Source of the DNA: Blastopirellula marina
Lineage (GTDB): Bacteria > Planctomycetota > Planctomycetia > Pirellulales > Thermoguttaceae
Assembly: GCA_020721965.1 (NCBI GenBank)
Contig: DYLS01000004.1
Span: 9,091-73,090 of the forward strand
Direction: 5' to 3'
Length of the DNA stretch: 64,000 nt
Positions within the stretch are counted from its first letter, which is position 1. Every line of letters starts with the position of its first letter. Below the pieces are notes generated by a model, which worked only from the letters and a program-made list of their open reading frames with translations, was not told the origin of the DNA and made no database searches. The translations under genes were made by a program, and so were the position numbers. This document shows positions 3,643-52,706 of the stretch, one piece after another.

Positions 3643-3808
3643 CCAACCGTTCACGGAGCATTGGAGGCCTCACGCCGCGTTGCCCACAATATCTGGTAGT
3701 GCCACATCGGGCAGTGCCTTGAGCAATCGGCTATTACGAACGAAGCGTTTTTGCCGAACAGCTCGGGAAAACGTCGCGTTTCCCCCCTGTTCCAGCCGTG
3801 AACGGTTC
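3643..3808. mobile_element. MITE family A (IS66-type GTAACCGTTCACGG ends), degenerate copy
   Basis: Ends ccAACCGTTCACGG (3643) and CCGTGAACGGTTc (to 3808). Flanks ACCGTGGC / ACCGTCGC give a 7/8 TSD. Internal blocks GCAAAAACGC and GCCGATTGCTCAAG (minus strand) are shared with the copy at 26206. Confidence 0.8.
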
Positions 3809-3839
3809 ACCGTCGCAAAGGAAAGATCCACGGTCGAGA

Positions 3840-4376
3840 TCACGGCGGAAGGGCGTCCCCGGCTCCCCAGATTCCGCGCCGAGCCTTTCGTGCCCGATCT
3901 TCCGCCGCAAGAAGACGCGCCTTAAGCTCCCGTGGACACGCGTATTCCCTTGCCACTCGGGCAAGACCTCGCTCCACCAGGGCTTCGTTGATGCAGATGT
4001 CGGCGGCCCAGACCACCCCCAGCAATCGCCCGTACTTGTCGCGTTGGTTCTCCGTCTCCAGGCGAATCCGGCCAGCCACCGACTGGATGTAGTCCCGCAC
4101 CGCCTGCGAGGCCTCCGGACCAAACGGTTCCACGGGACTGTTGGGTTTCACAGATTCGGGGGCATCGATACCCCAAAGACGAACGCGATCGCCACCCATC
4201 AACACCAGGGTATCCCCATCCACCACCCGCTCGACGCTGTACTCGCCGCTTTGAGCTGGCCCGCTAGGCGGCATCGAGGACGGAGCGGCCGACCATTCGC
4301 CACCACGGTTCAAAAAGCGGAGCAGCAGCAATAGCAACAATACGAGGATCGCTGTCGCCGGGGTCCAGCGACGCAT
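3840..4376 (-). CDS. Thermonuclease (SNase) family protein with N-terminal TM/signal segment
   Basis: RVVDGDTL, RVRLWGIDAPE, RDKYGRLLG, INEALVERGLA, ARKARRGIW. Start moved to MRRWTP (4376). Confidence 0.92.
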   Translation of the reverse strand: MRRWTPATAILVLLLLLLLRFLNRGGEWSAAPSSMPPSGPAQSGEYSVERVVDGDTLVLMGGDRVRLWGIDAPESVKPNSPVEPFGPEASQAVRDYIQSVAGRIRLETENQRDKYGRLLGVVWAADICINEALVERGLARVAREYACPRELKARLLAAEDRARKARRGIWGAGDALPP

Positions 4377-4539
4377 CGACCGGGGAGACAGCGTCGGGAC
4401 CGGAAGTCGGCGAGTGCATCGGCGGGCAGTCATCAACACCCGTTCCCCGCAGGACGTTAAAGCCACATACACCTCCGTGCTACGTCCGCGAACCGACCAC
4501 GGCGGCTTCCGAATGGGGAAAGAGGCTGCGAATGTCGCT

Positions 4540-4842
4540 TCAATTGTCGCTCATTCCAAGAACGCGGACGGTCCCTCTTCCCAAGGGGTTGCGCAAAAAG
4601 GACCTGCGGCACTTGGAGCACAGGTCGAACGTCAGGACCACATGCGCCGGCTCGAAGGCCTCTTCGTTCTGAACATCAAATCGTTCGAGGAGATCATGAA
4701 TCTCTTCCAGGTGGTCGCGGTCATCCGGCTCGCCCTCTTCGACCGGATCGAAGGCTGCTGCAATCTCGATTTTCACCTGGTAGTGTGTCTCACGGATGGG
4801 ATCGATTTCCCGCTTGCACATGTCGCAGACATAGCGAATCAT
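4540..4842 (-). CDS. Small hypothetical protein with two CxxC pairs (probable Zn-binding)
   Basis: MIRYVCDMCKREI...FDLCSKCRRSFLRNPLG with an acidic middle; GGGAGAG RBS before the ATG at 4842. Confidence 0.75.
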   Translation of the reverse strand: MIRYVCDMCKREIDPIRETHYQVKIEIAAAFDPVEEGEPDDRDHLEEIHDLLERFDVQNEEAFEPAHVVLTFDLCSKCRRSFLRNPLGRGTVRVLGMSDN

Positions 4843-5094
4843 CGGCCGCTCTCCCTGATTGCTGGGCTGATCCGGTTTTGGTAGAAGCCCTAACCCCAAC
4901 ACGTTCATGGTAATAGCCGCAACAACACCGGGGCAATAGCGGAATGAAGAGTTTTTTCACGGGCCGGGAGAGGCTGGTTCCCGCCCCATTCCTCGCTTGA
5001 CAAAGGCCCTCGCGTTTGTTCCGCGCGCAGGCGCGGGGATCGACGGAGATCGCATGGCGAGGCCGCCTCACGCCACTGTGTTGGGGAACGTTGG

Positions 5095-6150
5095 CTAAGC
5101 GTTGGGAGCGGAACCGCTGGCGTGGCGATGGGCCAATTCCACGACCGTGCGCCCCATGACTTTGCCGGCCAAGATGTCGCCCAAGAGCGGCTCCAGCGAT
5201 TCCAAGGGAACGATCCGCCGCAGGTCCGGCAGGCGTTCCACGCGCCAGGCGTCGGCCAGCAGGGACCAGATTTCGGCCTTCCGCTTAATGCGTGCGTAGG
5301 CGGCATCGATCCCCACCAAGGTGATGCCGCGCAGGATGAACGGATAGACCGTCATATCCAGGCGATTGCTCGCGGCCAGCCCGCACGCCGCCACGCATCC
5401 ACCGTGCTTTACCGATCGCAGGAGGGTGGTCAAAATCCGGCCGCCAACGGTGTCCACGGCCCCCGCCCAACGTCCGGAGAGGAGAGGCTTGTCCGTTTTG
5501 TCTTCCGCCTGATCGCGTGAGAGAAAGTCGCTGGCCCCCAGGCTTCGCAAGAGCGAGATGGCGTGGGGTTTTCCCGTCACGGCCGTGACATGAAATCCGA
5601 GCTTCGCAAGGATGGCCACCGCGAGGGAACCGACGCCACCCGACGCCCCGGTCACCACCACGTCGCCCCTCTCCGGGATAGCGCCGTGTTGCAGCAAGGC
5701 CTGCACGCACATCGCGGCGGTCAATCCGGCCGTGCCGTAGGTCATGGCGTCCAGGGAATTGAGGTTGGGCGGTAAAAGCAACACCCATTCGCGCGGCACG
5801 CGGACCCATTCGGCCCAGCCTCCCCAGCGTCCGGAACCCATCTCCCAGCCGGTGACCACCACGGCATCGCCTGGTGAGAAATCGGCCGTTTGCGATTGGG
5901 CGACCCTCCCAGCCGCATCGATGCCGGGAACGTGCGGAAAGCTCGTCACCACGCCGGGATGCCCTGCCGCGGCCAAGGCGTCCTTGTAATTGAGCGAGGA
6001 GTGTTCGGTCCGAATCAAGACCTCTCCCGGCGGAAGCTCCAATAATGGCCGATATGCCAGGCCACGCCGGATCGTGCCGTCCTCCAACCGCTCGACCCAG
6101 AGGCAGCAAAACGAGTCCGGCAATTTGAAGGCTTGCGATCTCGGTTCCAT
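5095..6150 (-). CDS. acuI: YhdH/YhfP-family MDR oxidoreductase (acryloyl-CoA reductase AcuI-like)
   Basis: SSLNYKDALA, PHVPGIDAAG, GTAGLTAA, VTGASGGVGSLAV, GAVDTVGG, PFILRGITLVGID. AGGAG RBS before the ATG at 6150. Confidence 0.88.
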   Translation of the reverse strand: MEPRSQAFKLPDSFCCLWVERLEDGTIRRGLAYRPLLELPPGEVLIRTEHSSLNYKDALAAAGHPGVVTSFPHVPGIDAAGRVAQSQTADFSPGDAVVVTGWEMGSGRWGGWAEWVRVPREWVLLLPPNLNSLDAMTYGTAGLTAAMCVQALLQHGAIPERGDVVVTGASGGVGSLAVAILAKLGFHVTAVTGKPHAISLLRSLGASDFLSRDQAEDKTDKPLLSGRWAGAVDTVGGRILTTLLRSVKHGGCVAACGLAASNRLDMTVYPFILRGITLVGIDAAYARIKRKAEIWSLLADAWRVERLPDLRRIVPLESLEPLLGDILAGKVMGRTVVELAHRHASGSAPNA

Positions 6151-6330
6151 GACGACCACACTCCTTTTGCCCATGCCGTTCCCCGCGGTCGGCGATGCAA
6201 CCTGATGCTACAGCGGAGGGTTCTTCGATTGGCTCAGCATCTTGTGGTGAGGGATTGCATCGCCTCCCAACTTATGCCCGGCACATCATCGAATTAGGCG
6301 GACTTTGCGATCTAGTGCGAAAGGCGAAGC

Positions 6331-6346
6331 TGGCACCGCTTTTGCA
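6331..6346 (+). promoter_or_regulatory. Perfect sigma54 (-24/-12) consensus match, oriented antisense to htrA
   Basis: TGGCAC-cgctt-TTGCA (GG-N10-GC). There is no + strand gene directly downstream, so it may be a chance match. Confidence 0.3.
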
Positions 6347-6395
6347 GGCGAGGCCCACCTTCAGACCGCCCTCCGGCAGGTATCCCGCCGCGACT

Positions 6396-8598: not shown

Positions 8599-8657
8599 AT
8601 CTAGCCGAAGAAGACTCGTCGCGTCCGGCTCACTCGATTGGATTCTGGGTCAAGGAG

Positions 8658-11460: not shown

Positions 11461-11640
11461 ACTGGACTTTTGCAAAGTGCTCAATCCCCCTCCGAGAGAG
11501 GGCTACAAACTAGGGTGCTAGGAAATCCAGGAAAACACGGAAAGCCGTTTTCGTGGGAAACTGTCTTCGCCCCACCATCTCCCCAGGGAAGGTGGGAGCT
11601 TGTGACTTCAAGTTGCAAAAGTCCAGTGCAAAAGTCCAGT
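11461..11640. mobile_element. MITE family B (167 bp, TIR ACTGGACTTTTGCAAA), copy 1, with a 13-bp duplication of the right TIR
   Basis: Left TIR 11461-11476; right TIR 11613-11627 plus repeated GCAAAAGTCCAGT 11628-11640. TCAGTA lies on both sides (11456-11461 and 11640-11645). Colinear with the reverse complement of the copies at 25092 and 44550. Confidence 0.88.
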
Positions 11641-18115: not shown

Positions 18116-18337
18116 CGAGAAATTGGCTAAAATATCGAAACGCGCCTCGATGGGGAGTTGTCCGGGTTTTCGACTTGAGCCCAGCATATTCGACAAGTTA
18201 TCCTGGTGGTTCTACACCGCCGCGCGCCTTCGCATGCCTGGCGTACCGAAGGTGCCTTGCGGCTCGGCCTCGATGCGGCCACGTTGCCCGGAGGGGTCGG
18301 CCGCCTGGCGGTATCCATGAGGGCTAACCCAAACGGC

Positions 18338-18690
18338 AAAACCGTTCACGGTTGAGCTATAACGGAAAAGATTGGTGAAACAACGAGGGTCGTTCAGATG
18401 TTCCAGAGCGTTGTTGAGAGGTTCCTTCCGTCCGGAAGGGTCTGGCGTTGTGGTGAGCGATAGCAGCGCCATTGCGTAGCGGCGCTCTCATTGCGACGAG
18501 CGATAGCAAAGTCACTTAGCGACGAGGATATCATTTCGACAATCGCTAGCGAGGAGAAATCTTCACCCCTGTCGAGAAGATTTCCCGCTTCGAAAGATTT
18601 CCCGCTTCGCTCGAAATGACAAAGCGGCAAGCCACTTGCGTCTCGGCGAGCGGTTTTGTAGGGACGAGAGCCCCTGTGAACGACACCCCC
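18338..18690. mobile_element. MITE family A, long subtype; right TIR lost; carries a GTCAT/ATGAC hairpin
   Basis: Begins AACCGTTCACGGTTGAGCTATAACGGAAAAGATTGGTGAAACAACGAGGGT, matching the reverse complement of 35871-35820. Hairpin at 18530-18621. The subterminal CCTGTGAACGAC (about 18673-18684) is present but no terminal CGTGAACGGTTAC follows. Confidence 0.75.
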
Positions 18691-18743
18691 AAATCAAGGC
18701 CACACGCAACAGCGCGGAACAATAGGCACGGAACCACACACCC

Positions 18744-20360
18744 ATGCAGGAATTGCGAGCGCGCGTTAACTGGACGAGCAGAGTTGGCGTGATTTTAGCT
18801 GTGACCGGCAGCGCCGTGGGACTGGGCAACTTCTTGCGGTTTCCCGGCCTGGCGGCCAAATATGGCGGCGGCGCCTTCATGATCGCCTATGTCTGCGCCT
18901 TTCTATTCCTCGGCTTGCCGATCGCCTTCGCCGAATGGTCCATGGGCCGCTACGGTGGACGACACGGCTTCAATTCCTCGCCGGGCATCTACCGCCTGAT
19001 CTGGAAGAATCGCATCGCCCCCTACTTCGGTATCCTGGCCATGATTGTGCCGATCTGCATCTACATGTATTACGTGTACATCGAGGCATGGTGCTTGGCC
19101 TACGCCACGCGGTATCTGTTCCACGCCATGAATTTTGGTCCGGATTCCAGATGTTACGAGCGATTCTTCGCGGAATTCGTGGGACTCAACAAACACGGCG
19201 AGGCGATGCATACGCCTGGGGAGGGCCTCTTGGGATCTGCCGTGTTCTTTGTGTTGATGTGCTTCGTGTTCAACTTCGCGCTCATCTACCGTGGACTGAA
19301 CAAGGGTATCGAGTGGTTCTGCCGCTGGGCCATGCCGGCTTTGATCCTTTGCGCCCTTCTCGTCTTGATTCGCGTGCTGACGCTCGGCACACCGGACCCA
19401 TCCAAACCGGATCAGAATATTCTCAATGGTCTCGGCTACATGTGGAATCCCGTCAAACCTGGGAGCACCTTTTGGCAAGAGCTGGCGAACGCCGAGATGT
19501 GGATGGCGGCTGCGGGCCAGATATTCTTTTCCCTATCGGTCGGTTTCGGTATCGTCATCACCTACGCCAGCTACGTAAAAAAGGACGATGACATCGCGCT
19601 TTCCAGTCTGACCGCCTGCGCCGGCAATGAGTTCTGCGAGGTGGCCCTGGGCGGTTTGATCACCGTCCCCGCCGCTTTCGTCTTTCTGGGACCGCAAGTG
19701 GTCCAGAATCCGCCCGGCACCTTCGGGCTAGGCTTTATGGCCCTGCCCATGGTCTTTGGTCAAATGCCGCTGGGCGATTTTGTGGGGTTTTTGTTCTTTT
19801 TCCTCCTGTTCCTGGCGGCGATCACCAGTTCGCTTTCCATGCTGCAACCGGGCGTCGCCTTTCTGGAGGAGGGGCTGGGGCTGAATCGCAGGGCCTCGGT
19901 CTCGCTGCTTGGATTCATCACGGCTCTAGGCTCGACGGGCGTGGTCTATTTCTCCAAGGATTTGATCGCCCTGGACACGCTCGATTTTTGGGTGGGGACC
20001 TTCTGCCTCTACGCCCTGGCCGCCTTTCAGACCGTGCTATTCGGCTGGGTACTGGGAGCAAAACGGGGAATGGCGGAGTTGCGACGCGGCGCGGAGATTC
20101 ACCTCCCTGAGTTCTTCCGGTACGTCCTCCAGTATGTCACGCCGGTCTATCTTTTGGTGGTATTCGGCTTCTGGCTGACGCAGAATTTGATCGCCGGGGA
20201 AGGCGGCAGCAATCGGCTGCAACAGCTCGTCCAAGACCCGGTCGTGGCAACCGTGATGATTTTCGTGCTCGGCGTGGCCGTCCTCTTTGGATTGTTCATC
20301 GGCCAAGCCGTGCGGAATTGGCGACGAGCGGAAGCCGCGAGCGAGGAGGTGATGATATGA
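18744..20360 (+). CDS. Sodium-dependent transporter, neurotransmitter:sodium symporter (NSS/SNF) family
   Basis: GSAVGLGNFLRFP, GGGAFMIAY, GIEWFCRWAMP, AAAGQIFFSLSVG, ITYASY, AAITSSLSM. Confidence 0.95.
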   Translation: MQELRARVNWTSRVGVILAVTGSAVGLGNFLRFPGLAAKYGGGAFMIAYVCAFLFLGLPIAFAEWSMGRYGGRHGFNSSPGIYRLIWKNRIAPYFGILAMIVPICIYMYYVYIEAWCLAYATRYLFHAMNFGPDSRCYERFFAEFVGLNKHGEAMHTPGEGLLGSAVFFVLMCFVFNFALIYRGLNKGIEWFCRWAMPALILCALLVLIRVLTLGTPDPSKPDQNILNGLGYMWNPVKPGSTFWQELANAEMWMAAAGQIFFSLSVGFGIVITYASYVKKDDDIALSSLTACAGNEFCEVALGGLITVPAAFVFLGPQVVQNPPGTFGLGFMALPMVFGQMPLGDFVGFLFFFLLFLAAITSSLSMLQPGVAFLEEGLGLNRRASVSLLGFITALGSTGVVYFSKDLIALDTLDFWVGTFCLYALAAFQTVLFGWVLGAKRGMAELRRGAEIHLPEFFRYVLQYVTPVYLLVVFGFWLTQNLIAGEGGSNRLQQLVQDPVVATVMIFVLGVAVLFGLFIGQAVRNWRRAEAASEEVMI

Positions 20361-25091: not shown

Positions 25092-25258
25092 ACTGCACTT
25101 TTGCAACGCGTGTTCACAAGCTCCCACACCCCCTCGGGAAAAGGCAATGTGAAGGCTATTTACTGCGGAAATGGATTTCGCTGTTTGTCTGAATTCCCCA
25201 ATCACAAGGCCTATCACCCTCTATTAGAGGGGGAGCGAACAGTTTGCAAAACTCCAGT
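25092..25258. mobile_element. MITE family B (167 bp), copy 2
   Basis: ACTGCACTTTTGCAAC ... TTTGCAAAACTCCAGT; exactly 167 bp and gap-free colinear with 44550-44716 (shared GTTCACAAGCTCC, TTTACTGCGRAAA, CTGTTTKTCTGAAT, AGCGAACARTTTGCAAAA). Confidence 0.85.
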
Positions 25259-26205: not shown

Positions 26206-26361
26206 GTAACCGTTCACGGGGCGGAATCATGCGGAAAACGCCGTATTTTCTCGGGCCGTGCAGCAAAAACGCGCCGCAGGTAGCCGCCGATTGCTCAAGC
26301 CACCCGGCGAGATGCTGCGCTCGATGCGGCGCGGCGATTCCAATGTTTCGTGAACGATTAC
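26206..26361. mobile_element. MITE family A, 156-bp copy
   Basis: GTAACCGTTCACGG (26206) ... CAATGTTTCGTGAACGATTAC (26361); internal GGAATCATGCG and GCAAAAACGC are shared with the 42653 copy, and CATGCGGAAAACGCC and GCAAAAACGC with the 52557 copy. Confidence 0.85.
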
Positions 26362-26850
26362 GTCGTTAGGCAGGCCAGCGGGATAACGCCGCACAGGGGG
26401 GCATGGCCATCACGCTTTTTCCCCGGGCTCCACCCCTTCCGCCCAAGCCGTCTTCTCGCCTGAGGCCAACGGACCGCCGCTTGAACGTATAATCCAGAAA
26501 GGCGTAGGTTCCGCGACTTCGCCAGCACTTTTCCTACTACAGCGCAGGCTTGTTTGCTGGGATTAGCATCTTTTTGCTCGGATCAGTATCGTGTTGTGAT
26601 GATGGGATGGTTGGTGATGGGACACAACGCCCCGCAGCATTTCCTGGGCAGGGCAGGCAGCCGAGCGGACTTTGCGCCGTAGTATCCAAGACCGGGAGGT
26701 GCTGATTTGAGCCTGTTTGTTCGTGAAGGTCGCCTCGGTACCCCCCAGGCCCTTTCGACGCCTGGGTCGGTGCACGCTCCAATCGCATCGGACTCGCGCA
26801 GGCGGATCGAAGGATTACCGCGGGACGCGCGGATGTGGTCGGAAAGCGGC

Positions 26851-28077: not shown

Positions 28078-28492
28078 AGCTTGCTGGCCCAAGTGCTTGC
28101 CCACAGGTGCTTACGCAACAGTCCCACGCGGCCAACGCCCTGCCAGAGCAGCCCCGCGGTCACATGCGGCGAGGGAAACCACCCGCAATGCCTATTGATG
28201 CTACAACGGAGGCTTGATTGCGTGGCCCAATATTTTGCGGTACTGGCGTGGAGCGTCTCAACAGGCATGGCGGGCAGATCAGGCAATCCGGCAGCGATGG
28301 CCCTCTGGTATTGCTACAGCGTGGGGTCGCTTGCTTGGCTCAACCTCTTGTGACGATGCGTCGCAACGGCTCGCAAGATATGCTGGGCAGTTATGAGACC
28401 AGGGAGACTTTGCGCTGGAGTATTATCAGCGTGCCACATCGTGGCTATGATCGCGGCGAATCCATGCCTCACTCAATTCGCTGTAGTCCGTC

Positions 28493-33947: not shown

Positions 33948-33960
33948 GCCCACGCCGATG

Positions 33961-34138
33961 CCGTATCCTTTTTTGATCCCCCAACGCAACGTCTTTCTTT
34001 AATCCCACAGCGCAACGTCCGCCCGATTGCACGATGTGCGCGGCCTATGTTGCAAGTCGTTATATCCCATCACCACAGGCCGTTGAACCGAGCAAACCAC
34101 CCTGCGCTGTAGCATGAATACCCGTACCCTTTTTTGAT
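33961..34138 (+). repeat. Pair of 17-bp direct repeats 161 bp apart
   Basis: CCGTATCCTTTTTTGAT (33961-33977) and CCGTACCCTTTTTTGAT (34122-34138). Confidence 0.7.
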
Positions 34139-35202: not shown

Positions 35203-35616
35203 GGCTCGTGTCGTCCTCCGGTCAGGGATGGGCGATGGGCTACCGTCATCGGCCTCAGACTCGCCTGACCCGTTGGGATGGCCCGCCAACAACAGACCCT
35301 GTCGGCATCGGTGGAGGGGCCTTTGTCGCCGAAAAAACCACGCCTGGCCCGACGCCGGCTCACGACCGCATCCCCGTATATTAGATGCACCGGGAACGGC
35401 AATTATTCCCAGGTCTCGGCCAATCCCAGATCGCGGGGCAAGATCGGCCGCCATCCCCGCCCATCCGCCCAGCCGCCACCGAAGAAACCATCCCGCCGAT
35501 TCAACAGAAGGGCCACCCCCGCTCGCCCGAAAGTCGATGACGGAAAACCGCGGCTCTGCGGACACGACCTTTCTGGCATGAAAAACCCGTCATCCACGCA
35601 CAGAGTCGCTGCGGAC

Positions 35617-35871
35617 GTAACCGTTCACGAGGGGGCAGTCGTTCACAGGGATTCTCCTCACTGCAAAACGGCTCGTCCCCCTGTCATTTCGAGCGAAGCG
35701 AGAAATCTTTTCGACACAGGACTAGGATTTCTCCTCGATGGCGCTCGTCGAAATGACACTGCTGGCGCTCGTCGAAATGACATTCCGTTCCCCACTCAAG
35801 GAACCTCTGGAACCTCTCACCCTGGTTGTTTCACCAAGCCTTCCCATTACAGCTCAGCCGTGAACGGTTAC
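35617..35871. mobile_element. MITE family A, intact 255-bp long subtype with perfect TIRs, an 8-bp TSD and an internal REP-like hairpin
   Basis: GTAACCGTTCACG (35617) ... CGTGAACGGTTAC (35871); CTGCGGAC on both sides (35609-35616 and 35872-35879); internal TGTCATTTCGAGCGAAGCGAGAAATCT...GATTTCTCCTCG...CGTCGAAATGACA (35682-35782). Confidence 0.95.
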
Positions 35872-35892
35872 CTGCGGACGGAAGCGATTCCC

Positions 35893-36741
35893 CTACGGCA
35901 GAATCCGACATCGGCGGAGAATTTCGGCCGGCGGCACGAGGTAGCCGCTATAAAACGGCCCAAACTCCGCATATTTCGCGCTGGCCTCGTCGTATCGCAT
36001 GCGGTATACGATGTCCTTCAAGAACTGCGGGTTCCGCGCCCAGAGCGAAACTCCCCACTCCCAGTCCTCCAAACCAATCCCGACTGTCACCAATTGCGTC
36101 ACCTTACCGGCAAAGGCGATCCCGCTCTCTCCGTGTTCCGCCATCAGGCGCTCCCGCGTCTCGAAATCCAGCAGGAACCAGTTGGCATCCGGAAGACGCC
36201 GCTTATTCATGGGATAAAAGCAAAAGGCAGGCCAGCTCGGGATGTCCGGATAGAGACGCTGCCGCCTCATGATCTCCAGTCGCTTGACGTACTGCGACAA
36301 CCGCCGCTGAAATTCCTCTTCACCCCGTTTCAGCCCCTCTTCCTCTAGCCGCTGAGCATATCGCTGTTCGTCTGGGAGGTATTCCGATACCTCTGTCATC
36401 GAGACAAAAGACCAGACCGGATTGATCGCCGGTCCCAGCGAACCGTTGAGCAATTCCTGATGCACGGCATCGAGCCTCATCGGATCCGAGTCCAACATCA
36501 TGATTCCGAAGTCGGCCTTATGACCCATCACCAAAAAGGTCTGCATCGCAGCGGGACCAGCCGCATCCTGGCCTTTTACCAGCAAGTCGCAAAAATGGCG
36601 GCAACCGTCCATCCGCTCCGCTGGCCCCAGCGTCCGCAATTGCTTTCGATCGAACCGGTAGAACACGTGAAGACAATGCCGCCCCTCCGTCGGGGACAGC
36701 GAAATCTCTGGTCGCGGCGACGATTCTCGAGAATCACTCAT
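35893..36741 (-). CDS. chdC: Coproheme decarboxylase (HemQ/ChdC), chlorite dismutase-like family
   Basis: FCFYPMNKRR (catalytic Tyr/Lys), NWFLL...LMAEHG (proximal His), KVTQL (Gln rather than the Cld Arg), DWEWGV, MRYDEASAKYAEFGPFY. Confidence 0.85.
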   Translation of the reverse strand: MSDSRESSPRPEISLSPTEGRHCLHVFYRFDRKQLRTLGPAERMDGCRHFCDLLVKGQDAAGPAAMQTFLVMGHKADFGIMMLDSDPMRLDAVHQELLNGSLGPAINPVWSFVSMTEVSEYLPDEQRYAQRLEEEGLKRGEEEFQRRLSQYVKRLEIMRRQRLYPDIPSWPAFCFYPMNKRRLPDANWFLLDFETRERLMAEHGESGIAFAGKVTQLVTVGIGLEDWEWGVSLWARNPQFLKDIVYRMRYDEASAKYAEFGPFYSGYLVPPAEILRRCRILP

Positions 36742-37197: not shown

Positions 37198-37584
37198 TCA
37201 ACTCAACAGCCGCTGGACACTTTCGATCAACCGATCCATCGGAAAGGGCTTGCGGATGTAATCGTCCACGCCCAACATCTCGGCATAGGCCTTGTGACGG
37301 TTGCCTTCGTTGGCAGTAATCATGATCACCCGGGTAGGGACCTTGCGAGTTTGCCGGAGTCGCTCCAACACCAGAAACCCGCTTCGCTTGGGCATCATCA
37401 TGTCCAAGATCACCAGATCGGGGTCTTGCGTATCGGCCAAGGTCAGCCCCTGATTCCCGTCTCGGGCGACCAAAATCTCGTAGCCCAACGCCCCCAGAGC
37501 GATGCGCATCGACTCGATAATCTCCGGGTCGTCGTCCACCAGCAAAATACGCTTGCGGACATGCGCATTTCCGCTGGTTTCCAT
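37198..37584 (-). CDS. Single-domain response regulator (receiver)
   Basis: ILLVDDD, DLVILDMMMP, IMITAN, GVDDYIRKPF. Start moved to METSGN (37584). Confidence 0.93.
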   Translation of the reverse strand: METSGNAHVRKRILLVDDDPEIIESMRIALGALGYEILVARDGNQGLTLADTQDPDLVILDMMMPKRSGFLVLERLRQTRKVPTRVIMITANEGNRHKAYAEMLGVDDYIRKPFPMDRLIESVQRLLS

Positions 37585-38960: not shown

Positions 38961-40622
38961 ATGAAAAACGTGCCGGAAAACGAACTGTTCAGTGCCTATC
39001 TCGACGGTGAACTCACCGCCGACGAGCAGGCGCAAATGGAACGTTTGTTGGCCGGCAGCGAGTCCGCGCGAAAGCTCCTGGAAGACCTGCGTGCTCAGGC
39101 GAACCTCCTCCAATCGCTACCTCGCATCGGCGTCCCGGTCGATCTCTCTGAGCGGATTTTGGGCGAGATCGCTGGGCGTAAAAGCATGGAGCGTCAAGAC
39201 CCGGCACCTCTCCAGACCGCAGGCTCAGAGCCCGAGCCGATCCCGTCCATCGTTTCGGTGAGCAGAGATCAGGCGCCGTCGCAAATCTGGCCCAGCAGTG
39301 ACGCGAATACCCCCTGGAATCCCGCTGCGATACTCCGCAGATTGGCCCGGCCCCGCAATTTGGGCTGGGCACTCATCGCGGCGTCGTTAGCCGCCGTGAT
39401 TTTCCTGATGGATGTTGCCCGGCAGTTTCACGATCGGCGAGAGGGCAATCTGGCTTTTGCCCCCAACCAAGAGGCCCCGGCCACCTCTCCCGTCGATTCC
39501 AGCCTGGAGATGCCGCCCTTGCCGGCCGACACATCCATGGGTGCCGCCGAAGCTGCCCGGGGTGCTGCCCCCGAAACGGGCACCCTAGCCGTTGCCCGGT
39601 CGCGGGGTACAGCAAACAATGATTTGCCTTCTCCCGAAGTTATGGTCTCGAATCATCCAGATGCCCCACCATCGGGACAACGCGTCGCAACCATGGGGGC
39701 CAACGCAATCGAGGGAGTCGCCCCTTCCGAAGCGGAAATGACCGCCGTTCCCGACGAAAGTGGAGGCAGCGTAGGGGGTCGGATGGCCTCACCGGCGACC
39801 GTTCCAGCACCGTTAACCGCCGATGCCTTGGCAGCTCGCGGGCCTGCTCCTGGCGGCGATGAACAGGTCTCGATTCTACGGCAATACGAGGTTCGGGGCT
39901 TGCCGCAGATGCCGCAAATGCCACAGGCCATTCCGGTCGAAATCGTCTGCCGTTTGATGCCGCAAGCGGACCCCCATGCGGTAGCCGCCCGGGTGGTTCA
40001 GCGCCGCAATTCCGTCCCGGATGCCACCGATTCGTACAGCGGCTGGGAGTTTGCCGCGGCCCAGACGCCCGCTCCCGGTCCAGGGGCGTTGTCCCGTCGG
40101 TCGGCTGCGAGGGCTGCCCCGCCTCCAGATGATGTGACTCAAAAGTCTCATAGTCCCCAGCAGATGCCGCTTGGCCCGGGTATTCGCATTCATGATGAGT
40201 CCGGCGAAGGCGACGGGGCGGTGATCGTCGAATTCACCGGCACGTTGCCACAGATCGAGGCGGTGCTGGCTGAGTTGGAACGCGAGCCGGACCAGGTGGC
40301 CCAAATCACGCTACCCACCTCGTTGGGGCTGGTGCAAGACCGTATCCGACGGGCGGCGCGTACGCCGACGTCTGCTGAAGGGGCCGAAGCACTCCGTTCT
40401 GGCCCAATGGCGGCCATCCCCCCGGCCCGGCTGGGTGCTAGTGCCAGCGCCGACAGCGTACCTGACCAGCGAGCTGATTTCCCTGCACCGTCGGATGGAC
40501 CGTCTCGCCAAACCGATACCTCTTCCCTTTACCGCGTAACGATCCGGCTGCTACCATCAGCCCCCCAGGCTGGCGGACCGTCCCAAGACCCGGGGCCTTC
40601 CCCGACCCCAGAAAAGCGGTAA
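38961..40622 (+). CDS. Anti-sigma factor (ASD N-terminus without HxxxCxxC, one TM helix, long low-complexity extracytoplasmic part)
   Basis: ELFSAYLDGELTADEQAQMERLL; TM WALIAASLAAVIFLM; lies directly downstream of the ECF sigma gene. Confidence 0.85.
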   Translation: MKNVPENELFSAYLDGELTADEQAQMERLLAGSESARKLLEDLRAQANLLQSLPRIGVPVDLSERILGEIAGRKSMERQDPAPLQTAGSEPEPIPSIVSVSRDQAPSQIWPSSDANTPWNPAAILRRLARPRNLGWALIAASLAAVIFLMDVARQFHDRREGNLAFAPNQEAPATSPVDSSLEMPPLPADTSMGAAEAARGAAPETGTLAVARSRGTANNDLPSPEVMVSNHPDAPPSGQRVATMGANAIEGVAPSEAEMTAVPDESGGSVGGRMASPATVPAPLTADALAARGPAPGGDEQVSILRQYEVRGLPQMPQMPQAIPVEIVCRLMPQADPHAVAARVVQRRNSVPDATDSYSGWEFAAAQTPAPGPGALSRRSAARAAPPPDDVTQKSHSPQQMPLGPGIRIHDESGEGDGAVIVEFTGTLPQIEAVLAELEREPDQVAQITLPTSLGLVQDRIRRAARTPTSAEGAEALRSGPMAAIPPARLGASASADSVPDQRADFPAPSDGPSRQTDTSSLYRVTIRLLPSAPQAGGPSQDPGPSPTPEKR

Positions 40623-40643: not shown

Positions 40644-40787
40644 GCAATCGTTCACGGGACATTCTGGGTGTCACGCGGCGTCAACTGCGGCATCTTGCGG
40701 TTCCCTTGAGCCCTCGGCGGCTATGAGGGCAGAATCCCGCCGTGCAGCATCGTCCCATGGGATCTAAGCAAACGGGGGAACGGGTAC
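40644..40787. mobile_element. MITE family A, degenerate 144-bp copy (inverted)
   Basis: GCAATCGTTCACGGGACATTCTGGGT is the reverse complement of the family end (22/26 vs 52681-52706); the other end is GGGGGAACGGGTAC (10/14). An 11-bp tandem duplication (GCCGATAGCTA x2, 40788-40809) abuts it. Confidence 0.7.
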
Positions 40788-40939: not shown

Positions 40940-42469
40940 ATGACGGTCGAACAGTTTCTCGAGCTTGTCCTACGTAGCCAACTGGTGGAACGCGACCAGT
41001 TGCAGCGGTTCCTGGCCCAACTGCCTCCCGACGTAAACCAGGCGACCGTCAGCGCGGAGGAAATGGCAAACCATCTGTGCCATGCCGGGCTGCTGACCCA
41101 ATGGCAAAGTCAGAAGCTGCTGGAAGGCCGTTACAAGGGCTTTTTCCTCGGCAAATATCGCCTGCTCGATCATCTGGGAACCGGCGGGATGAGCAGCGTG
41201 TACTTGGCCGAGCACGTGCTGATGCAGCGCCGGGTCGCGATCAAGGTCCTCCCCAAGCACCGGGTGCAAGATTCGTCCTATCTGGCGAGATTCCACCGCG
41301 AAGCCCAGGCGGCCGCCGCCCTGGATCATCGGAACATCGTCCGGGCGTACGACGTGGACAACGACAGCGTCAATCACTATCTCGTCATGGAATACGTGGA
41401 AGGGCAGGACCTTCAGCGCATGGTGCGACAAAGCGGACCGTTGCCGTTCCATCTGGCGGCGGACTACATCCGACAGGCCGCGGAGGGACTGGCCCACGCC
41501 CATCAGGCCGGCCTCATCCATCGCGATGTCAAGCCCGCTAATCTCCTCGTGGACGCAAAAGGGACGATCAAGGTCCTAGATTTGGGGCTGGCCCGATTCA
41601 CCAGTGACGAGGCAGCCTCCTTGACCGTCGCCTATGATGAGAATGTTCTGGGAACCGCCGACTACCTCGCTCCGGAGCAAGCGATCGACAGCCACGGCGT
41701 CGATGCCCGCGCCGACATCTATAGCTTGGGCTGCACACTGTATTTCCTTCTGACTGGCAGGCCTCCTTTTCCCGATGGTACGTTACCGCAGCGGCTGATG
41801 AAACACCAAAGGGAGATGCCGCCGGAGATTCGCACGCTTCGCCCGGACGTCCCCGCCGATCTGGCCGCCATCTGCTTCCAGATGATGGCGAAAAAACCGG
41901 CTGACCGCTATGCTTTAGCGGGGCAAGTTGCGGCTGTGCTGACCAAGTGGCTGCTCGATCACGGGTTTACCGTTGCCGACGGCGGCAGCCGCGGCAGCGC
42001 CATCGCCCAGGGCCTGCGCGAGCAACCTCGCCCCGCCTCGCCCATGTCGCCCAGCTCCACCAAACGCCTCCCATCAGCCAAGCCGTTGCCCAGTGGCGGC
42101 CCGCAAACCCCGGTCAACCCCACACTACGAGCCCCCGCGGTACCCACCACGGCAACCGGGACAAGAGCGGCACCTACCACTGCTGAGACCACCGCCAAGA
42201 ACGGAGGCGCGGCTCAAGATGGCTCTGGCAAAGGACGCGGGTTGCCGGTTGCCAAGCCCCTCACGCAGCCCGAAACCGAGCCACCGTCTGAGGAATACCC
42301 GGGCCTGCATATCACGGAAGATCCTCTTTTGAACCTTGTCCGTTCCGGACACGTGACAGGGAGAGGCCGCTCCAGCGCCGCCCTGGCACCGTGGTGGCTT
42401 TGGGCCATCGGCGGAGTTGGCTTGATCATCTCCGCGGCACTGGCTGCTTACCTTCTCCTCTCCCGGTAA
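40940..42469 (+). CDS. Hanks-type Ser/Thr protein kinase with a Pro-rich linker and C-terminal TM anchor
   Basis: [48 protein letters not shown]; C-terminal [23 protein letters not shown]. Start moved to MTVEQF (40940). Confidence 0.96.
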
Positions 42470-42579
42470 TGAGGAGATACCCTCCCCCAATGATGAGGAG
42501 ATACCGTCTCGCAATGGCGACGAGATACCGTCTCCCCGTGATGACGAGATATCCTCTCCCGGTGATGAAGAGATCGGCC
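42460..42579 (+). repeat. 24-bp tandem repeat x5 straddling the kinase stop codon
   Basis: GAGAT(A/C) recurs at 42474, 42498, 42522, 42546 and 42570. Confidence 0.85.
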
Positions 42580-42652: not shown

Positions 42653-42805
42653 GTAACCGCTCCCGGGTGGAATCATGCGAAACCGGAATGATTTCCTGAC
42701 CCGTGGGGCAAAAACGCTCTGCTCGCGGCCGGCGATTCCTCGACAACACCACAAGCTGCGGAGATCGACCCGGTGCGATACCCCGAATGTTCCGGGAACG
42801 GTTAC
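42653..42805. mobile_element. MITE family A, 153-bp copy
   Basis: GTAACCGCTCCCGG (42653) ... ACCCCGAATGTTCCGGGAACGGTTAC (42805); flanks TCCATGGG / TCTACGGT (5/8, decayed TSD). Confidence 0.85.
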
Positions 42806-42884: not shown

Positions 42885-43967
42885 TCAGTGACCGCTTTCC
42901 ATCAAGACGGGAAGGCGGCTGAAAAGATAGAAGGGACGCGGGACCGCGGCGTCGAGCAATATGCGCCAGTCCCATTCCGAATGCGGCAACCGGCTGGTCA
43001 TCGTATCTCCCAGCATCAATTCGACCAGGGAAGGCTCACGGGCGTATCGGACGACGTTGACGTCGTCGGGATTCAGCCCCGCCAATTCGATGGCCCGATT
43101 CACGGCATCCTCCAGGAAACCGATTTCATCGACCAGCCCCGCCTCCTTGGCCTGGAGGGCAGTGAAAACCTGACCCGTGGCCAGCTTATCCAATTCGCCC
43201 GGCTTTTGCTGAAACCGCGGTCGGCCTTCGCGGACGATCTCCTTGAATCGGGTGAAGCTGTCATCTACCAATTGCTGGAAGATGGCCCGTTCCTCTTCCG
43301 TCATTGGCCGTAATGGGCTGCCCATCCCCTTCAGCCGGTGGCTGGCGATCGAGTCCTCTTTGACTCCCAGCTTGTCGGCCAGGTCCGTGGCGTCGTAATG
43401 CGGGATGATCACCCCGATCGAACCCGTCCAGGTGGTCGGTTCCGCGAAAATGCTTTTGGGCGTATCTCCCACCGCCATCGAAATGTAATAACCGCCGCTG
43501 GCGGCCACGGAGCCCATGCTCACCACCACCGGGAGGTTCCGTTCCTCCCGCATCTTCTTCAAGTGATGCAGGATGAAATCCGAGCCGGTCACGGTACCGC
43601 CCGGCGAGTCCACTCGCAGCACCACGGCTTTGACGTTTTGGTCCTGCTTTACCTGATCGATCTGATCCTTGGCAAACCCCTCGCCATCCAGAATCAACCC
43701 TTCCAAAGAGAGAATGGCCACCTTATCCGAAGCCGACGCATTGTGCGAGAAGTGCTCTTCTTTTACCTTGCTCGGCTCGAATCCCGACAGCCCCAAGGCA
43801 CCCAAGAGGATGATGTTGAAGAAAACAGAACCTATCAACAGCGCTACCAGAAGTACAATCACCAGCGACCGCCACGGGCTGGGCGGCCGGTAAAAGGGGT
43901 GGATGTACGGCGGGACCATCCGTGCGGTGACAACATCGTCCGGTGGAAGGTTGGAACTCATCATCAC
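42885..43967 (-). CDS. sppA: Signal peptide peptidase SppA (S49)
   Basis: VVLRVDSPGGTVTGSD, VSMGSVAASGGYYI, TWTGSIGV, GLVDEIG. Confidence 0.95.
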   Translation of the reverse strand: MMMSSNLPPDDVVTARMVPPYIHPFYRPPSPWRSLVIVLLVALLIGSVFFNIILLGALGLSGFEPSKVKEEHFSHNASASDKVAILSLEGLILDGEGFAKDQIDQVKQDQNVKAVVLRVDSPGGTVTGSDFILHHLKKMREERNLPVVVSMGSVAASGGYYISMAVGDTPKSIFAEPTTWTGSIGVIIPHYDATDLADKLGVKEDSIASHRLKGMGSPLRPMTEEERAIFQQLVDDSFTRFKEIVREGRPRFQQKPGELDKLATGQVFTALQAKEAGLVDEIGFLEDAVNRAIELAGLNPDDVNVVRYAREPSLVELMLGDTMTSRLPHSEWDWRILLDAAVPRPFYLFSRLPVLMESGH

Positions 43968-44549
43968 AGCTCACCCATTCCATGTCACAACAAATACGAA
44001 ACGTCGTTTGCACCCCTTAACTGAAGGGGACAGGGCATCATCACGATCACGCATGGCACCGCCACACGCGGCCCCGTTTTCCCGCCCGCACGACCAAATT
44101 TGCAGGACGCGGCAGCGCAACCCCGCAGCGGGCATCCATGTTATTGTAGCTCACGGGGCCGGGCGAGACCCTCCGGGTGGCCGAATTCGCCGCCAACAGA
44201 ACAGGCTATTGGGCCTGACTGCGGCAAGCAAGCGTTGCAATATTCCCCAAAAACCGGGCGACGGCGTCACCCCTCGCACCGGCTTCAACCGTTTTAGCGC
44301 TACAGCGTTGGGTTGCTCTCAACATCTTGTGGTGATGCGAAACCACGCATTGGAACGTATGGTGGGCGCATCATGCAGGCACACCGACTTTGCGCTGTAG
44401 GATTAGGCACCCGCTCACCGGCCGGGGTTCGACCGCCGCTAGCTTCTTTCAGATTACACAGACTCGTTATACGGACTCGACTGTGGCGATTTTTACAGAC
44501 TCGACCGAGGCTCTCCGCGCCGGTCGCCGCTTGCAAAATCGACTTCCTG

Positions 44550-44716
44550 ACTGGACTTTTACAAATTGGGTTCACAAGCTCCGCTCTCCCCTCGCGGGAT
44601 TGGGAAAAGACGGCAGTTTACTGCGAAAACCGCCTTTCCTGTTTTTCTGAATCACCCAGAGTTTCAGTTTGTCGCACTCTCTCAGGGGGAGAGCGAACAA
44701 TTTGCAAAAGTCCAGT
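44550..44716. mobile_element. MITE family B (167 bp), copy 3
   Basis: ACTGGACTTTTACAAA ... TTTGCAAAAGTCCAGT; exactly 167 bp; 28 bp downstream of the GH2 stop. Confidence 0.88.
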
Positions 44717-44744
44717 TGCCGAGCGAATCTGCCGAGGCAGCGTG

Positions 44745-46967: not shown

Positions 46968-46980
46968 CGCTCACAACCTT

Positions 46981-49075: not shown

Positions 49076-49203
49076 GACCATCGACTTCTGAGACGATTGG
49101 TGAAGTCGGACATCCTCTAACTTTCCCGGAGAATCCAAGGTTAATTGGACACAGGCAAAATCAGCGGTATCAAATACCGCCCCGCTGAAAAGGAGTGTAA
49201 ACC

Positions 49204-49893: not shown

Positions 49894-49987
49894 GGCTTTA
49901 CCCGATTTCTGACCGCGAAACGGTCGGAACGCAGCCCCGCCGCGGTCCGTCCCAAGACAACCGCGGAAACCCATCCTGACATCTGGA

Positions 49988-50027
49988 ACCGGCGACCGAT
50001 TGCGAATCGGCGCCGGTCCTTTTGTTT
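49988..50027 (+). terminator. Intrinsic terminator-like hairpin
   Basis: ACCGGCG-a-CCGATT-gcg-AATCGG-CGCCGGT then CCTTTTGTTT. Confidence 0.6.
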
Positions 50028-50477
50028 ACGGCGGTAGTTGCCGAAGGTTTACAGCGGTAGCTGCCGACGGTGGCTCGCGCCCCCCCACTCCCCCGGTCAA
50101 ACGACAGCGAGGCAAGCGATTCCTTTTTCCCCGGTGGCCTACTCCCATTGCACACGCCCATTGAGGCACAACAAATAGCATTGACACCGACCCTTATACA
50201 CAACGTTTAGTGGCGTGCAATGAAGGTGGGGCACCACACTTTTTTCGCTCTTGCCAAAATTGCGGCATTGTCTTTCAATAAGGGGGCCTCGAGGATTGCC
50301 TCTTTCCCGCACCTTCGTTTTCCGCGATCTTTTGAGGTCGTGCAAGCTCGTAGCGATCGGACCGCCCGAAAGGTCCTGATCGCGGAGCGACGCTGTGCCC
50401 CCGGTCGCCCAATATCCGGACGGTAACGCGCGACCGTTGAGGAACGGATTCCGCTGGTCACTCAGGGAGGAGAGACG

Positions 50478-52538
50478 GTGCACGAACAGGCTCGTGATCG
50501 CGGCTGGCCCCCATTCCGCGGGGCAGCCTTCTTCATTTTGCCCGGCTTATTTGTTGGGTTGGGGACGGCCCTCGCCGGAACGCCTCATCCCCTGGCCGGT
50601 CAAACGGTGCTCCTCGATTTCTACGCCTCTTGGTGCGGCCCCTGCCGGAACATGATGCCCACCGTGGCCGAACTCGAGCGGTTGGGTTACCCCGTGCAGC
50701 GGATCGACGTAGATCGCCAGCGCGACCTGGCCCAGCAGCTCGGGGTACACTCCCTGCCCACTTTCGTGATGCTGGTGGACGGACAAGAGGCCGGGCGACT
50801 GATAGGGGGGCAACCACTCTCGTCGCTCATCGAGCTGTGCCGCCGCGCACCTCGTGCGAACACCGCGGCAGCCGCCCCCCAGTACACCAGCCCGCCCAAT
50901 GACCAGCACACCAGTTCGCCCAATGACCAGCACGCCGGATCGCCAAATGACCAGCGTACCGGACCGCCCAATGACTCGTCCAGCGATCGTCCCCCTGATC
51001 GCCGCACCGTCCCCGTGGAGGAAAATGCCACCCTGCCAGAGCTGATGCCGGGACTCCGCTACGCCTCCGCCGCGGAAGAAGATCTCACTGCGGCGACGGT
51101 ACGGATTCGGGTCGCCGATGCCTCGGGTCGCTCCACGGGGTCGGGCACCATCATCGACGCCCGGGGTGGCGAGGCCTTGATCCTGACTTGCGGCCACCTG
51201 TTCCGCGAATCGCAGGGCAAGGCACCCATCCGCGTGGATTTGTTCGGGACGCAGCCGGTTTCCGATCTGCCAGCTCAGTTGATCGACTACGACGACCGAT
51301 TGGACCTGGGACTCATCACGATCCGACCTCCCGCGCCGGTGGTGGCGGCCCGCGTCGCGCCCCCAGGCTTTCCTCTCTCCCAGGGTGATGCGATCTATTC
51401 GGTCGGCTGCAACGAGGGGAACCCTCCGACCTTACGGCAAGGAAAGATAACCACGCTCAACCGCTACCTCGGCCCAGCCAATATCGAGGCCTCCGGATCG
51501 CCTGTCACAGGCCGCAGCGGAGGGGGGCTGTTTTCCGCGGAAGGCTTTTTGATTGGCGTTTGTAATGCCGCCGATCCCGATCTGAACGAAGGCATCTACG
51601 CCGCGTTGAAGGAGATTCACCACCGGCTGGATCACCTGAATTTGAGCTTTGTGTATCGCGGGCGTCCCTTGGAGGCGGTAGCCGCGTCGCCACCCGCTCT
51701 GGCTCGAACGCCAGGCGTGGCAGCGGTCGAGGCGATCCAGGGGGACGTGGCAGCCGTGCTTGGAATACGCGCCGATGCCACCGCCAATGCCGGGAATCCG
51801 CCGGATTCTCCCCACGCCCAAGATATGGCGGCCACCACCGCCAGCGATTCCAACATGGCCCTCACCGAGGGGTTGAACCAAGAACGTGCCGCCGCGATTA
51901 CCACGCAAAACGGAATGCCGCTGCCGATTCCCTCGGACGAGCCTCCACTTCAGCCACTCCTTGGAATGAGGCGAAGCAATGCGGGCGATGCCACAGCCTC
52001 GTTGACACCGCCAACTCGCAGTCCCGCGCTCGGCTGGAACAACGTTGTCTTCACTCCGACGACACCCCACAGTCCCGTCACCCAAGGTGATCGCGTCGAG
52101 ACAGCGTCTTTCAATCCCGGTACCTCTTATAATCGCGATACGTCTGCTGCGAAAACTCCTCCCGCGACAGCGCAGCCGGGTGGAGTCGCTCTGACGGCCG
52201 AGGAACAAGCGACGCTGGACGAGATCGCCCGACGCCGCGCCCTGGGTTACGAAATCATCTGCATCGCGCGTCCCTCGAATTCCCAGGACAGCCCGAGTGA
52301 GGTAATCGTCCTGCGTGACGCCTCGCCAGCTTTTCTCGCGGCCCTCCAGCGTACGGAGGCAGCGCGGTCCCCAACGGGAGAGACCGGCTCGGCGCGACCA
52401 GCCCCGCCCGTCGCTATCGCAAACCAGACCGCATCCCCGGCAGCGTCGCGAGGTCGTGCCACCGCGGAACCCGATAAACTGCCCGCCGGCACCTCGCCCG
52501 TGCTCCCTGCGGTCGTTCTGCCCAGCCCAGCGAGGTAA
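50478..52538 (+). CDS. Exported thioredoxin-trypsin-like peptidase fusion protein
   Basis: GGAGGAG RBS + GTG; DFYASWCGPC; LILTCGHLF (His), DLGLI (Asp), TGRSGGGLF (Ser); 8-aa repeats TSPPNDQH (24-bp x4, about 50886-50980); long low-complexity C-half. Confidence 0.88.
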   Translation: MHEQARDRGWPPFRGAAFFILPGLFVGLGTALAGTPHPLAGQTVLLDFYASWCGPCRNMMPTVAELERLGYPVQRIDVDRQRDLAQQLGVHSLPTFVMLVDGQEAGRLIGGQPLSSLIELCRRAPRANTAAAAPQYTSPPNDQHTSSPNDQHAGSPNDQRTGPPNDSSSDRPPDRRTVPVEENATLPELMPGLRYASAAEEDLTAATVRIRVADASGRSTGSGTIIDARGGEALILTCGHLFRESQGKAPIRVDLFGTQPVSDLPAQLIDYDDRLDLGLITIRPPAPVVAARVAPPGFPLSQGDAIYSVGCNEGNPPTLRQGKITTLNRYLGPANIEASGSPVTGRSGGGLFSAEGFLIGVCNAADPDLNEGIYAALKEIHHRLDHLNLSFVYRGRPLEAVAASPPALARTPGVAAVEAIQGDVAAVLGIRADATANAGNPPDSPHAQDMAATTASDSNMALTEGLNQERAAAITTQNGMPLPIPSDEPPLQPLLGMRRSNAGDATASLTPPTRSPALGWNNVVFTPTTPHSPVTQGDRVETASFNPGTSYNRDTSAAKTPPATAQPGGVALTAEEQATLDEIARRRALGYEIICIARPSNSQDSPSEVIVLRDASPAFLAALQRTEAARSPTGETGSARPAPPVAIANQTASPAASRGRATAEPDKLPAGTSPVLPAVVLPSPAR

Positions 52539-52556
52539 CCCAATGTTCTGCTCGCC

Positions 52557-52706
52557 GTAATCGTACACGGAAACATGCGGAAAACGCCCCGTGTTCACGA
52601 GGCGTGTGGCAAAAACGCCCTGCCCATTGCTGCCCACGGCTGAAAGAAACCACAAGATATTGTGGCCGATACGGCGAGAAACCCCGAATGTTCCGTGAAC
52701 GGTTAC
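52557..52706. mobile_element. MITE family A, 150-bp copy
   Basis: GTAATCGTACACGG (52557) ... ACCCCGAATGTTCCGTGAACGGTTAC (52706); 26/27 identity of 52681-52707 with 42780-42806; flanks TGCTCGCC / TTCGCACC (5/8). Confidence 0.85.

Follow-up and report, generated by a model that had tools for sequence, protein, structure and literature searches.

Insertion sequences (ISs) of the IS66 family and bacterial transposable elements of the miniature inverted-repeat type (MITEs) are the closest described systems to the elements reported here. Inverted repeats of IS66 start with GTAAGCG and direct repeats are 8 bp long (PMC11946415). By description, the classical elements with three open reading frames (ORFs; tnpA-tnpB-tnpC) have inverted repeats of 20-30 bp and accessory TnpA and TnpB proteins. 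Single-ORF members form the ISBst12 group; one of them, ISDge4, has 14-nt terminal inverted repeats (TIRs), GTGACTACTCAGCA and GTAACTGCTCAGCA, and an 8-bp direct repeat (PMC12898284). MITEs such as MITEPsy1 of Pseudomonas syringae are small and non-coding, have IS-related ends with a TIR and a target site duplication (TSD), and show an intergenic bias (PMC3189936). In this study, a 64,000-nt stretch of a Blastopirellula marina assembly was analyzed (GCA_020721965.1, contig DYLS01000004.1, positions 9,091 to 73,090; hereafter the window), in which an initial annotation had proposed one dense family of seven MITEs with IS66-type ends. We found that the window contains two internally unrelated MITE families, A and B, which have a 14-bp end in common and are probably mobilised in trans by an ISBst12-group enzyme, a transposase of the single-ORF type within the IS66 family.

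The 14-mer GTAACCGTTCACGG, which starts with GTAA and is the consensus of the MITE TIR, matches the window 16 times at up to three mismatches, while 4.69 matches are expected and none of 100 shuffles reached 16. Twelve of these matches form six inverted pairs and a thirteenth is a lone good end at 18338; the six pairs and the one-ended copy (18338-18690) of the initial annotation were thereby recovered at the same positions by the motif scan and by nhmmer. The remaining three (171, 16647, and 59668) are unpaired, carry three mismatches and fall within the chance number. A match at 37258 lies inside a response-regulator gene. The nhmmer profile of family A detected exactly five copies in the window (E-values from 1e-25 to 1e-41), and that of family B detected two (35617-35871 and, as reverse complement, 18338-18704) with no further match in the window. 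By alignment and by profile the two families have only the 14-bp TIR in common, and their interiors are unrelated. The seven elements are two families with one common end, not the single family first proposed; their description as MITEs with IS66-type ends stands, and additional families elsewhere are likewise united by the TIR only. The internal blocks noted earlier as common to the short copies are visible in the family-A alignments.

Family A elements are about 150 bp long (144-166 bp) and family B elements 255 to about 367 bp (Table 1). Together the seven copies make up 2.2% of the window, where elements of 144-353 bp carry no transposase gene; elsewhere the length range is 124-415 bp. A sixth family-A copy, the eighth element, lies 2.4 kb beyond the end of the window, so that eight copies are found within 67 kb of one contig. 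At its far end the one-ended copy stops at a subterminal GTCGTTCACAGGG repeat and the outer 14-mer is missing. Copy 35617 has one TIR mismatch and an internal hairpin. Every copy is intergenic according to public gene calls and synteny, in agreement with the first description, and several lie within about 35 bp of a stop codon: copies 35617, 40644, and 52557 at 18-22 bp and copy 3643 at 31 bp. Copies 18338, 26206, and 66428 occupy upstream or divergent regions. A public gene call of 86 aa (18212-18472) without a Pfam match overlaps the end of copy 18338-18690 and is probably a spurious ORF.

Transposition footprints were studied in 13 two-ended elements: six from the window, one just outside it, and six from other contigs (L-numbers are labels of compared loci or contigs). 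The latter were obtained from a scan of genome contigs (L006, L008, and L010) and from viral contigs of IMG/VR (L087, L135, and L153). Complementarity between left and right ends stops at 14-15 nt in all 13 elements, and in 11 of them 12-14 of the 14 TIR positions are the same at both ends. Four elements have flanking 8-bp matches of 8/8, one of 9/9 with a boundary shift of 1 nt, and three of 7/8 (Table 1). The mean TSD match was 5.6/8 compared with 2.1 at control offsets, and a match of at least 7 was reached by 0.12% of 832 controls. Within the window the TSDs are graded, as first described, from 8/8 in copy 35617 down to 3/8 in copy 40644; the decayed ones (5, 5, 4, and 3 of 8) on average still exceed background. 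The elements are short, non-coding and dispersed, have 14-bp TIRs and 8-bp TSDs far above chance, and have no counterpart between the orthologous genes of a relative (see below). They are therefore real miniature transposons, and their flanks are footprints of transposition.

For comparison, we used 15 single-ORF ISs of the IS66 family that are autonomous and whose boundaries are set by a perfect 8-bp TSD of their own. Their TIRs are about 14 bp long and start with GTAA, with exceptions in Acaryochloris (GTTA) and Acidiphilium (GTAG). One clade has ends of the form GTAACCGTTCAC[C/A/G]N, in which 12-13 of the 14 positions are the same as in the MITE end (L171, the right end of ISAs21, the Nostoc C057 element, L182, and L184-186). 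The left end of L182 is also present in L184-186, whose own TSDs could not be confirmed. Identity falls to 8-10 of 14 positions in more distant members (e.g. GTAACTATTCAGCC, GTAACTGCTCAGCA), and GTAACTGCTCAGCA is the same sequence as the TIR published for ISDge4. With a position weight matrix built on the first nine ISs, the MITE end obtains P = 2e-4 relative to random 14-mers; when the score is restricted to positions 5-14, P = 0.02. Transposases of the close clade carry PF20042, PF13005, and PF03050, and with 4128 clusters (50% identity, E < 1e-30) this clade is very large. GC-rich representatives from protein searches belong to ISs with TIR identity of 11-13/14 and carry no taxon label. The IS66/ISBst12 attribution of the initial annotation is thus supported, because the ends of autonomous clade members are nearly identical to those of the MITEs and their insertion likewise leaves an 8-bp duplication.

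The window elements compare as follows with these described systems. ISAs21/ISKpn15-like single-ORF ISs of the ISBst12 group resemble them in the TIR of about 14 bp (GTAACCGTTCAC..) and in the 8-bp TSD, and their subterminal GG(R)AC..TT resembles GGRRCATT of the MITE right end. An extended right end (GGRRCATTSG) is found in family A, L006, L010, and L014; this end was partly preselected by the search pattern, and its likeness to the subterminal sequence of ISAs21 and ISKpn15 hence carries little weight. These ISs differ in being 1.5-1.7 kb long with a transposase of 460-510 aa (DUF6444, zf-IS66, DDE_Tnp_IS66), whereas the window elements have no ORF. Autonomous examples were found in Gammaproteobacteria, Cyanobacteria, and unassigned metagenome contigs, not in Planctomycetota. 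ISBst12, ISDge4, and ISGka of Geobacillus pHTA426 have the GTAAC start, the TTCA/CTCA core at positions 8-11, the 14-bp TIRs and the 8-bp repeats, but only 8-10 of 14 TIR positions are identical and the hosts are Bacillota and Deinococcota. Classical IS66 is alike in its GTAA(G/C)CG start and 8-bp TSD (PMC11946415) and differs in the length of its repeats, the MITE TIR being 14 bp as in the single-ORF group. MITEs of the MITEPsy1 type differ in presumed parent family, TSD length, and host phylum; here several unrelated interiors have one TIR. One of the compared ISs, L171, has GTAACCGTTCACC ends and interrupts the transposase gene of ISEcp1 upstream of blaOXA-181. The transposase of L171 itself is read via a -1 shift at the sequence A AAA AAG (about 1706-1713), and the 476-aa product is obtained only by joining both frames.

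The same end was observed around unrelated interiors in a Pirellulaceae metagenome-assembled genome (MAG; L010, 313 bp) and in a Planctomycetaceae MAG (L008 and L014, about 415 bp). An element of 211 bp with the same ends, a perfect TSD and an AT-rich interior is located on L006, a contig of 2.8 kb assigned to Thermodesulfobacteriota by binning; this represents either spread of the transposase type across phyla or a binning error. The IMG/VR contigs with this end are L087 and L153 (124 bp) and L135 (201 bp). The conserved unit appears to be the end, not the interior, and this fits independent MITE formation around one transposase-binding end.

Sequence identical to the window is present in contig CDICMA010000071.1 (109.9 kb, MAG GCA_975321765.1), in JGI metagenome 3300000227, and in Logan SRR1559028, a biofilm metagenome. 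The closest named relatives of the chlorite-dismutase-like (Cld) protein encoded next to copy 35617 are from Thermogutta/Thermoguttaceae and Pirellulales MAGs, which identifies the host as a planctomycete. Pairwise identity among family-A copies is 57-70% (mean 64%), about 1.6 of their 14 TIR positions deviate from the consensus, and the TSDs range from 7/8 down to 3/8. Given this mutual identity and the decayed TSDs, most copies in the window are old and differ in insertion age, and copy 35617 of family B, with its perfect TSD and single TIR mismatch, is comparatively recent and the youngest. Repeated waves of insertion, which had been read from the graded TSD decay, are only suggested by it. 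A syntenic relative (L160; Logan DRR667308, contig of 220 kb) has a Cld protein 86% identical to that of the window and genes with about 78% DNA identity. Its gene order corresponds to 24.2-46.9 kb of the window, a span with four copies here. Across this span of L160, including its four orthologous intergenic regions, we found no TIR motif and no match to family A or B, and the regions corresponding to copies 35617, 42653, and 26206 are shorter by roughly the length of the element. The simplest reading is a lineage-specific expansion after the split. Copies do occur elsewhere in this genome, as seven other contigs of the source run with similar depth (42-69 compared with 39) contain pieces at least 80% alike to copy 52557; the hundreds of copies per genome proposed initially would be an extrapolation.

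Mobilisation in trans by an ISBst12-group enzyme would work as follows. The elements encode nothing, and a transposase supplied in trans would recognise their 14-bp ends. Insertion would proceed by the cut-and-ligate reaction of a DDE enzyme with cuts staggered by 8 bp, resulting in the 8-bp TSD. The enzyme would most likely belong to the ISAs21-like clade of the ISBst12 group, with DUF6444, zf-IS66, and DDE_Tnp_IS66 domains, and families A and B use the same ends in one planctomycete genome. The surviving copies are confined to intergenic DNA, and many of them lie a short distance beyond a stop codon.

Several results weigh against this mechanism, and further searches were unsuccessful. The best TIR of an autonomous element matched the MITE end at 13 of 14 positions, and an exact match was not seen among them. 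As had been noted initially, the window contains no transposase, either by tblastn with six IS66-type transposases or among its public gene calls, which include no transposase Pfam family. The search proposed at that time for an IS66 transposase with the same TIRs was equally unsuccessful, as tblastn yielded none in about 89 kb of the source contig, covering the window and window 2521-67122, or in the planctomycete loci examined. Scanning genome contigs with the family-A right-end pattern gave 17 matches, 13 by chance and mostly within ORFs, and hence few real elements; nine matches in metagenome contigs were all due to chance and none came from the source sample. The intergenic DNA of L160 is too diverged to align, and nucleotide-exact empty sites, the part of the proposed comparison with related genomes that did not succeed, could not be shown. 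No joints skipping an element were seen in the source run. Protein searches for a planctomycete IS66 transposase had their top matches in Gammaproteobacteria, Cyanobacteria, or metagenome contigs, and a literature search on the motif or on IS66-derived MITEs in Planctomycetes returned nothing specific. The matches in the scanned genome and metagenome collections included no contig of the source MAG or source sample. MAGs tend to lose multi-copy ISs. With the source MAG apparently outside the scanned genome collection and given such losses, absence of a transposase from the genome cannot be claimed. Scans of IMG/VR with the 14-mer and two 15-mers gave about 130 matches, in which L087, L135, and L153 were the only real elements and no full-length IS was found. 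IS-sized TIR pairs (1.4-2.8 kb) in IMG/VR loci were rejected; they have no TSDs and some lie within ORFs.

Other explanations of the elements were considered. Another DDE family with an 8-bp duplication (ISL3, IS256, IS6, IS1595/Merlin, or hAT-like) could move the MITEs, in which case the likeness of their ends to IS66 would be coincidental. An 8-bp TSD alone is known not to be unique to IS66, and no cognate transposase was found in this organism by tblastn of the window and the reachable contig. However, autonomous IS66-family elements have TIRs that are likewise about 14 bp long and in which 12-13 of 14 positions match the MITE ends. By ISfinder conventions, the remaining 8-bp families typically have ends that begin with GG or include TTGCAAA, and a second MITE family in the window has such TTGCAAA-type ends (ACTGGACTTTTGCAAA), so that both end types are distinct here; we consider this origin very unlikely. 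Scarcely credible is spread as repetitive extragenic palindromic (REP) or bacterial interspersed mosaic element (BIME)-like units by a REP-associated tyrosine transposase (RAYT, IS200/IS605-type), or a role as paired host-protein sites on AACCGT-TC-ACGGTT. The 14-mer does hold a short palindrome (CCGT..ACGG), the copies are, like REPs, short, intergenic and often between convergent genes, and a survey of GTAG-tagged REPs covers Planctomycetes (PMC3733652). But REPs are GTAG- or CGTC-tagged palindromes of 20-40 bp without TSDs, whereas the ends in question carry a GTAA tag and a terminal stem of only 4 bp (CCGT/ACGG), lie 120-415 bp apart around unrelated interiors, and show no covariation for structure beyond the TIR stem. 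Direct duplications of 8 bp are not made by HUH/Y1 enzymes; the TSD pattern is the footprint of a DDE transposase with an 8-bp target stagger and excludes both RAYT-type spread and a mere protein-binding palindrome.

It is also conceivable, though improbable, that the copies are MITE-derived and now retained for use by the host as 3'-end, insulator, or promoter elements. Of the eight copies, five follow closely downstream of a stop codon and three are in upstream regions, and the TIRs are about 11% diverged from the consensus compared with interiors about 64% identical pairwise. An intergenic position is, however, expected anyway from purifying selection against insertions into genes, and L160 has no copies at any of the four orthologous sites. 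No promoter or terminator consensus rose above shuffles within the copies, and neither an Rfam match nor covariation was found (Rfam at gathering thresholds for the whole window and in E-value mode for copy 35617). A structured-RNA reading was dropped, as RNAalifold on six family-A copies predicted the TIR stem only, with an unfavourable covariation term. The window contains no tRNA genes. Effects on neighbouring genes are possible for copy 18338, near the transporter ATG, and copy 66428, near the NTPase gene. A further alternative, which we regard as doubtful, departs from simple deletion derivatives of an IS: the GTAACCGTTCACGG end would define a cross-phylum, end-only MITE superfamily rebuilt around unrelated cargo, partly a cosmopolitan hairpin module GTCATTYYGAGCGMAGCGARRAATC (family B and the 124-bp L153). 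If the module itself moves or has a function, and if it either seeds MITEs of the IS66 type or rides on them, the system would be a nested, two-layer non-autonomous one.

The interior of family B consists of the hairpin module, GTCATTTCGAGCGAAGCGAGAAATC ... CGCTCGTCGAAATGAC, and a 26-nt tandem unit, with a single-strand fold of z = -4.8. This module is hyper-abundant: among the three runs of the study, the family-B interior draws 1394 contigs in X1, whereas X2 and X3, both without the organism, yield 459 and 204, respectively, and the flanks remain at a depth of 41-42. A degenerate 25-mer of the module matches 91 IMG/VR stretches from many samples with GC contents of 37-69%, and a close variant of the module is carried by the L153 MITE (1650-1740). 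The module is not in Rfam and no description of it was found in the literature searched.

Table 1. Positions, terminal repeats and flanking duplications of the MITEs, of the autonomous IS66-family elements compared with them, and of other repeats. Positions refer to the window unless a locus is named; rc, reverse complement.
Feature	Position	Strand	Terminal repeats	TSD	Context or remark
Family A MITE, 166 bp	3643-3808	-		ACCGTGGC / ACCGTCGC, 7/8 (3635-3642 and 3809-3816)	31 bp downstream of stop of SNase-domain gene (3840-4376, minus strand)
Family B MITE, one end only	18338-18690 (nhmmer match to 18704, ~365 bp)	-	Good TIR AAAACCGTTCACGG at 18338		Divergent intergenic region, 54 bp upstream of SNF-transporter ATG at 18744
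Family A MITE, 156 bp	26206-26361	+	0 and 2 mismatches to consensus	4/8	Divergent intergenic region
Family B MITE, 255 bp	35617-35871	+	Both TIRs	CTGCGGAC, 8/8 (35609-35616 and 35872-35879)	21 bp from stop codon (35893-35895) of Cld gene
Family A MITE, 144 bp	40644-40787	-	2 and 5 mismatches	3/8	Most degraded, internal rearrangement; begins 21 bp past stop at 40622
Family A MITE, 153 bp	42653-42805	+	Same A>C change (..TCCCGG) in both TIRs	5/8	Convergent genes either side, stops at 42469 and 42885
Family A MITE, 150 bp	52557-52706	+		5/8	Most of 188-bp gap between convergent stops (52538, 52727)
Family A MITE, outside window	66428-66581, window-equivalent (L149 18238-18391)			TACTATTG / TTCTATTG, 7/8	84 bp upstream of NTPase gene
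MITE L006	L006 1883-2093			CTTTTTCC, 8/8
MITE L010	L010			AAACCGCT, 8/8
MITE L087	L087			CTTCGCAC, 8/8
MITE L153	L153			TGCCTGGAC, 9/9	1-nt boundary shift
MITE L135	L135			GGTGTTAC / GGTGTTGC, 7/8
IS in ISEcp1, E. coli plasmid NZ_CP096180.1	L171 1427-2983		GTAACCGTTCACCA / GTAACCGTTCACCG	ACAAATAC
ISAs21			GTAACTGTTCACCC / GTAACCGTTCACCG
Nostoc C057 IS			GTAACCGTTCACAG
ISKpn15			GTAAGTATTCACCG
Vibrio IS			GTAACTATTCACCC
Metagenomic IS	L182		GTAACCGTTCACGT	GGCTAGAC
Metagenomic IS, three copies	L179-181		GTAACCGTTCAGCC	Own perfect TSD each
Metagenomic element	L187		GTAACCGTTCAGGT	Could not be confirmed
pHTA426			GTAACTATTCAGCC
Two Geobacillus-like copies			GTAACTGTTCAGCC or similar
B. thuringiensis IS			GTAACTACTCAGCT
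Deinococcus IS			GTAACTGCTCAGCA
Mycobacterium IS			GTAAACATTCAGCC
Nostoc IS (more distant set)			GTAAGGATTCAGGT
Acaryochloris IS			GTTACTGCCCAGGC
Acidiphilium IS			GTAGCTGCTCGTCC
Hairpin module and 26-nt tandem unit	35672-35795, 18490-18640				Family B interior
Second MITE-like family, ~176 bp	11461-11636, 44541-44716 (rc), 25092-25198 (rc)		ACTGGACTTTTGCAAA ... TTGCAAAAGTCCAGT
Third intergenic repeat, ~110 nt	6205-6309, 28199-28276, 28312-28389, 34011-34115 (rc), 3306-3370 (rc), 44319-44405, 26531-26561
24-nt tandem unit	42456-42574				From stop codon of Ser/Thr kinase gene to 78 bp before MITE 42653
24-nt period repeat	50855-50998				In thioredoxin/trypsin-domain gene 50478-52538

Other repeats were also observed in the window. 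Copies of the second MITE-like family are about 70% identical, and their TTGCAAA-type ends are unlike the IS66-type ends. A third intergenic repeat (..CTACAGCG....CTCAAC.TCTTGTG......GACTTTGCGCT) is present in at least 6-7 copies with 64-75% identity. The intergenic region between the GH2 and S49 genes (43965-44744) is 780 bp long compared with 251 bp in L160, and the extra DNA includes one copy each of the second and third repeats. The 24-nt tandem unit (TCCTCTCCCGGTAATGAGGAGAT-like) next to MITE 42653 has four in-register copies in five unit slots. The repeat with a 24-nt period (five overlapping 48-nt copies) is probably a coding repeat of eight residues.

The elements described here are ordinary mobile DNA and would not surprise a specialist, but they are new to this bacterial lineage; the general understanding of MITEs is unchanged. 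For genome annotation, elements of about 150-350 bp fill a large part of several intergenic regions, and at least one public gene call lies within a copy. The relative with about 78% gene identity has no copies at the same sites; the expansion is therefore likely to be lineage-specific and could serve as a marker of strain or lineage. For IS66 biology, the single-ORF transposases of the ISBst12 group are poorly characterised, and the MITEs offer a concrete set of naturally occurring substrates for them, with a minimal end of 14 bp; the MITEs also suggest activity of this group in Planctomycetota.

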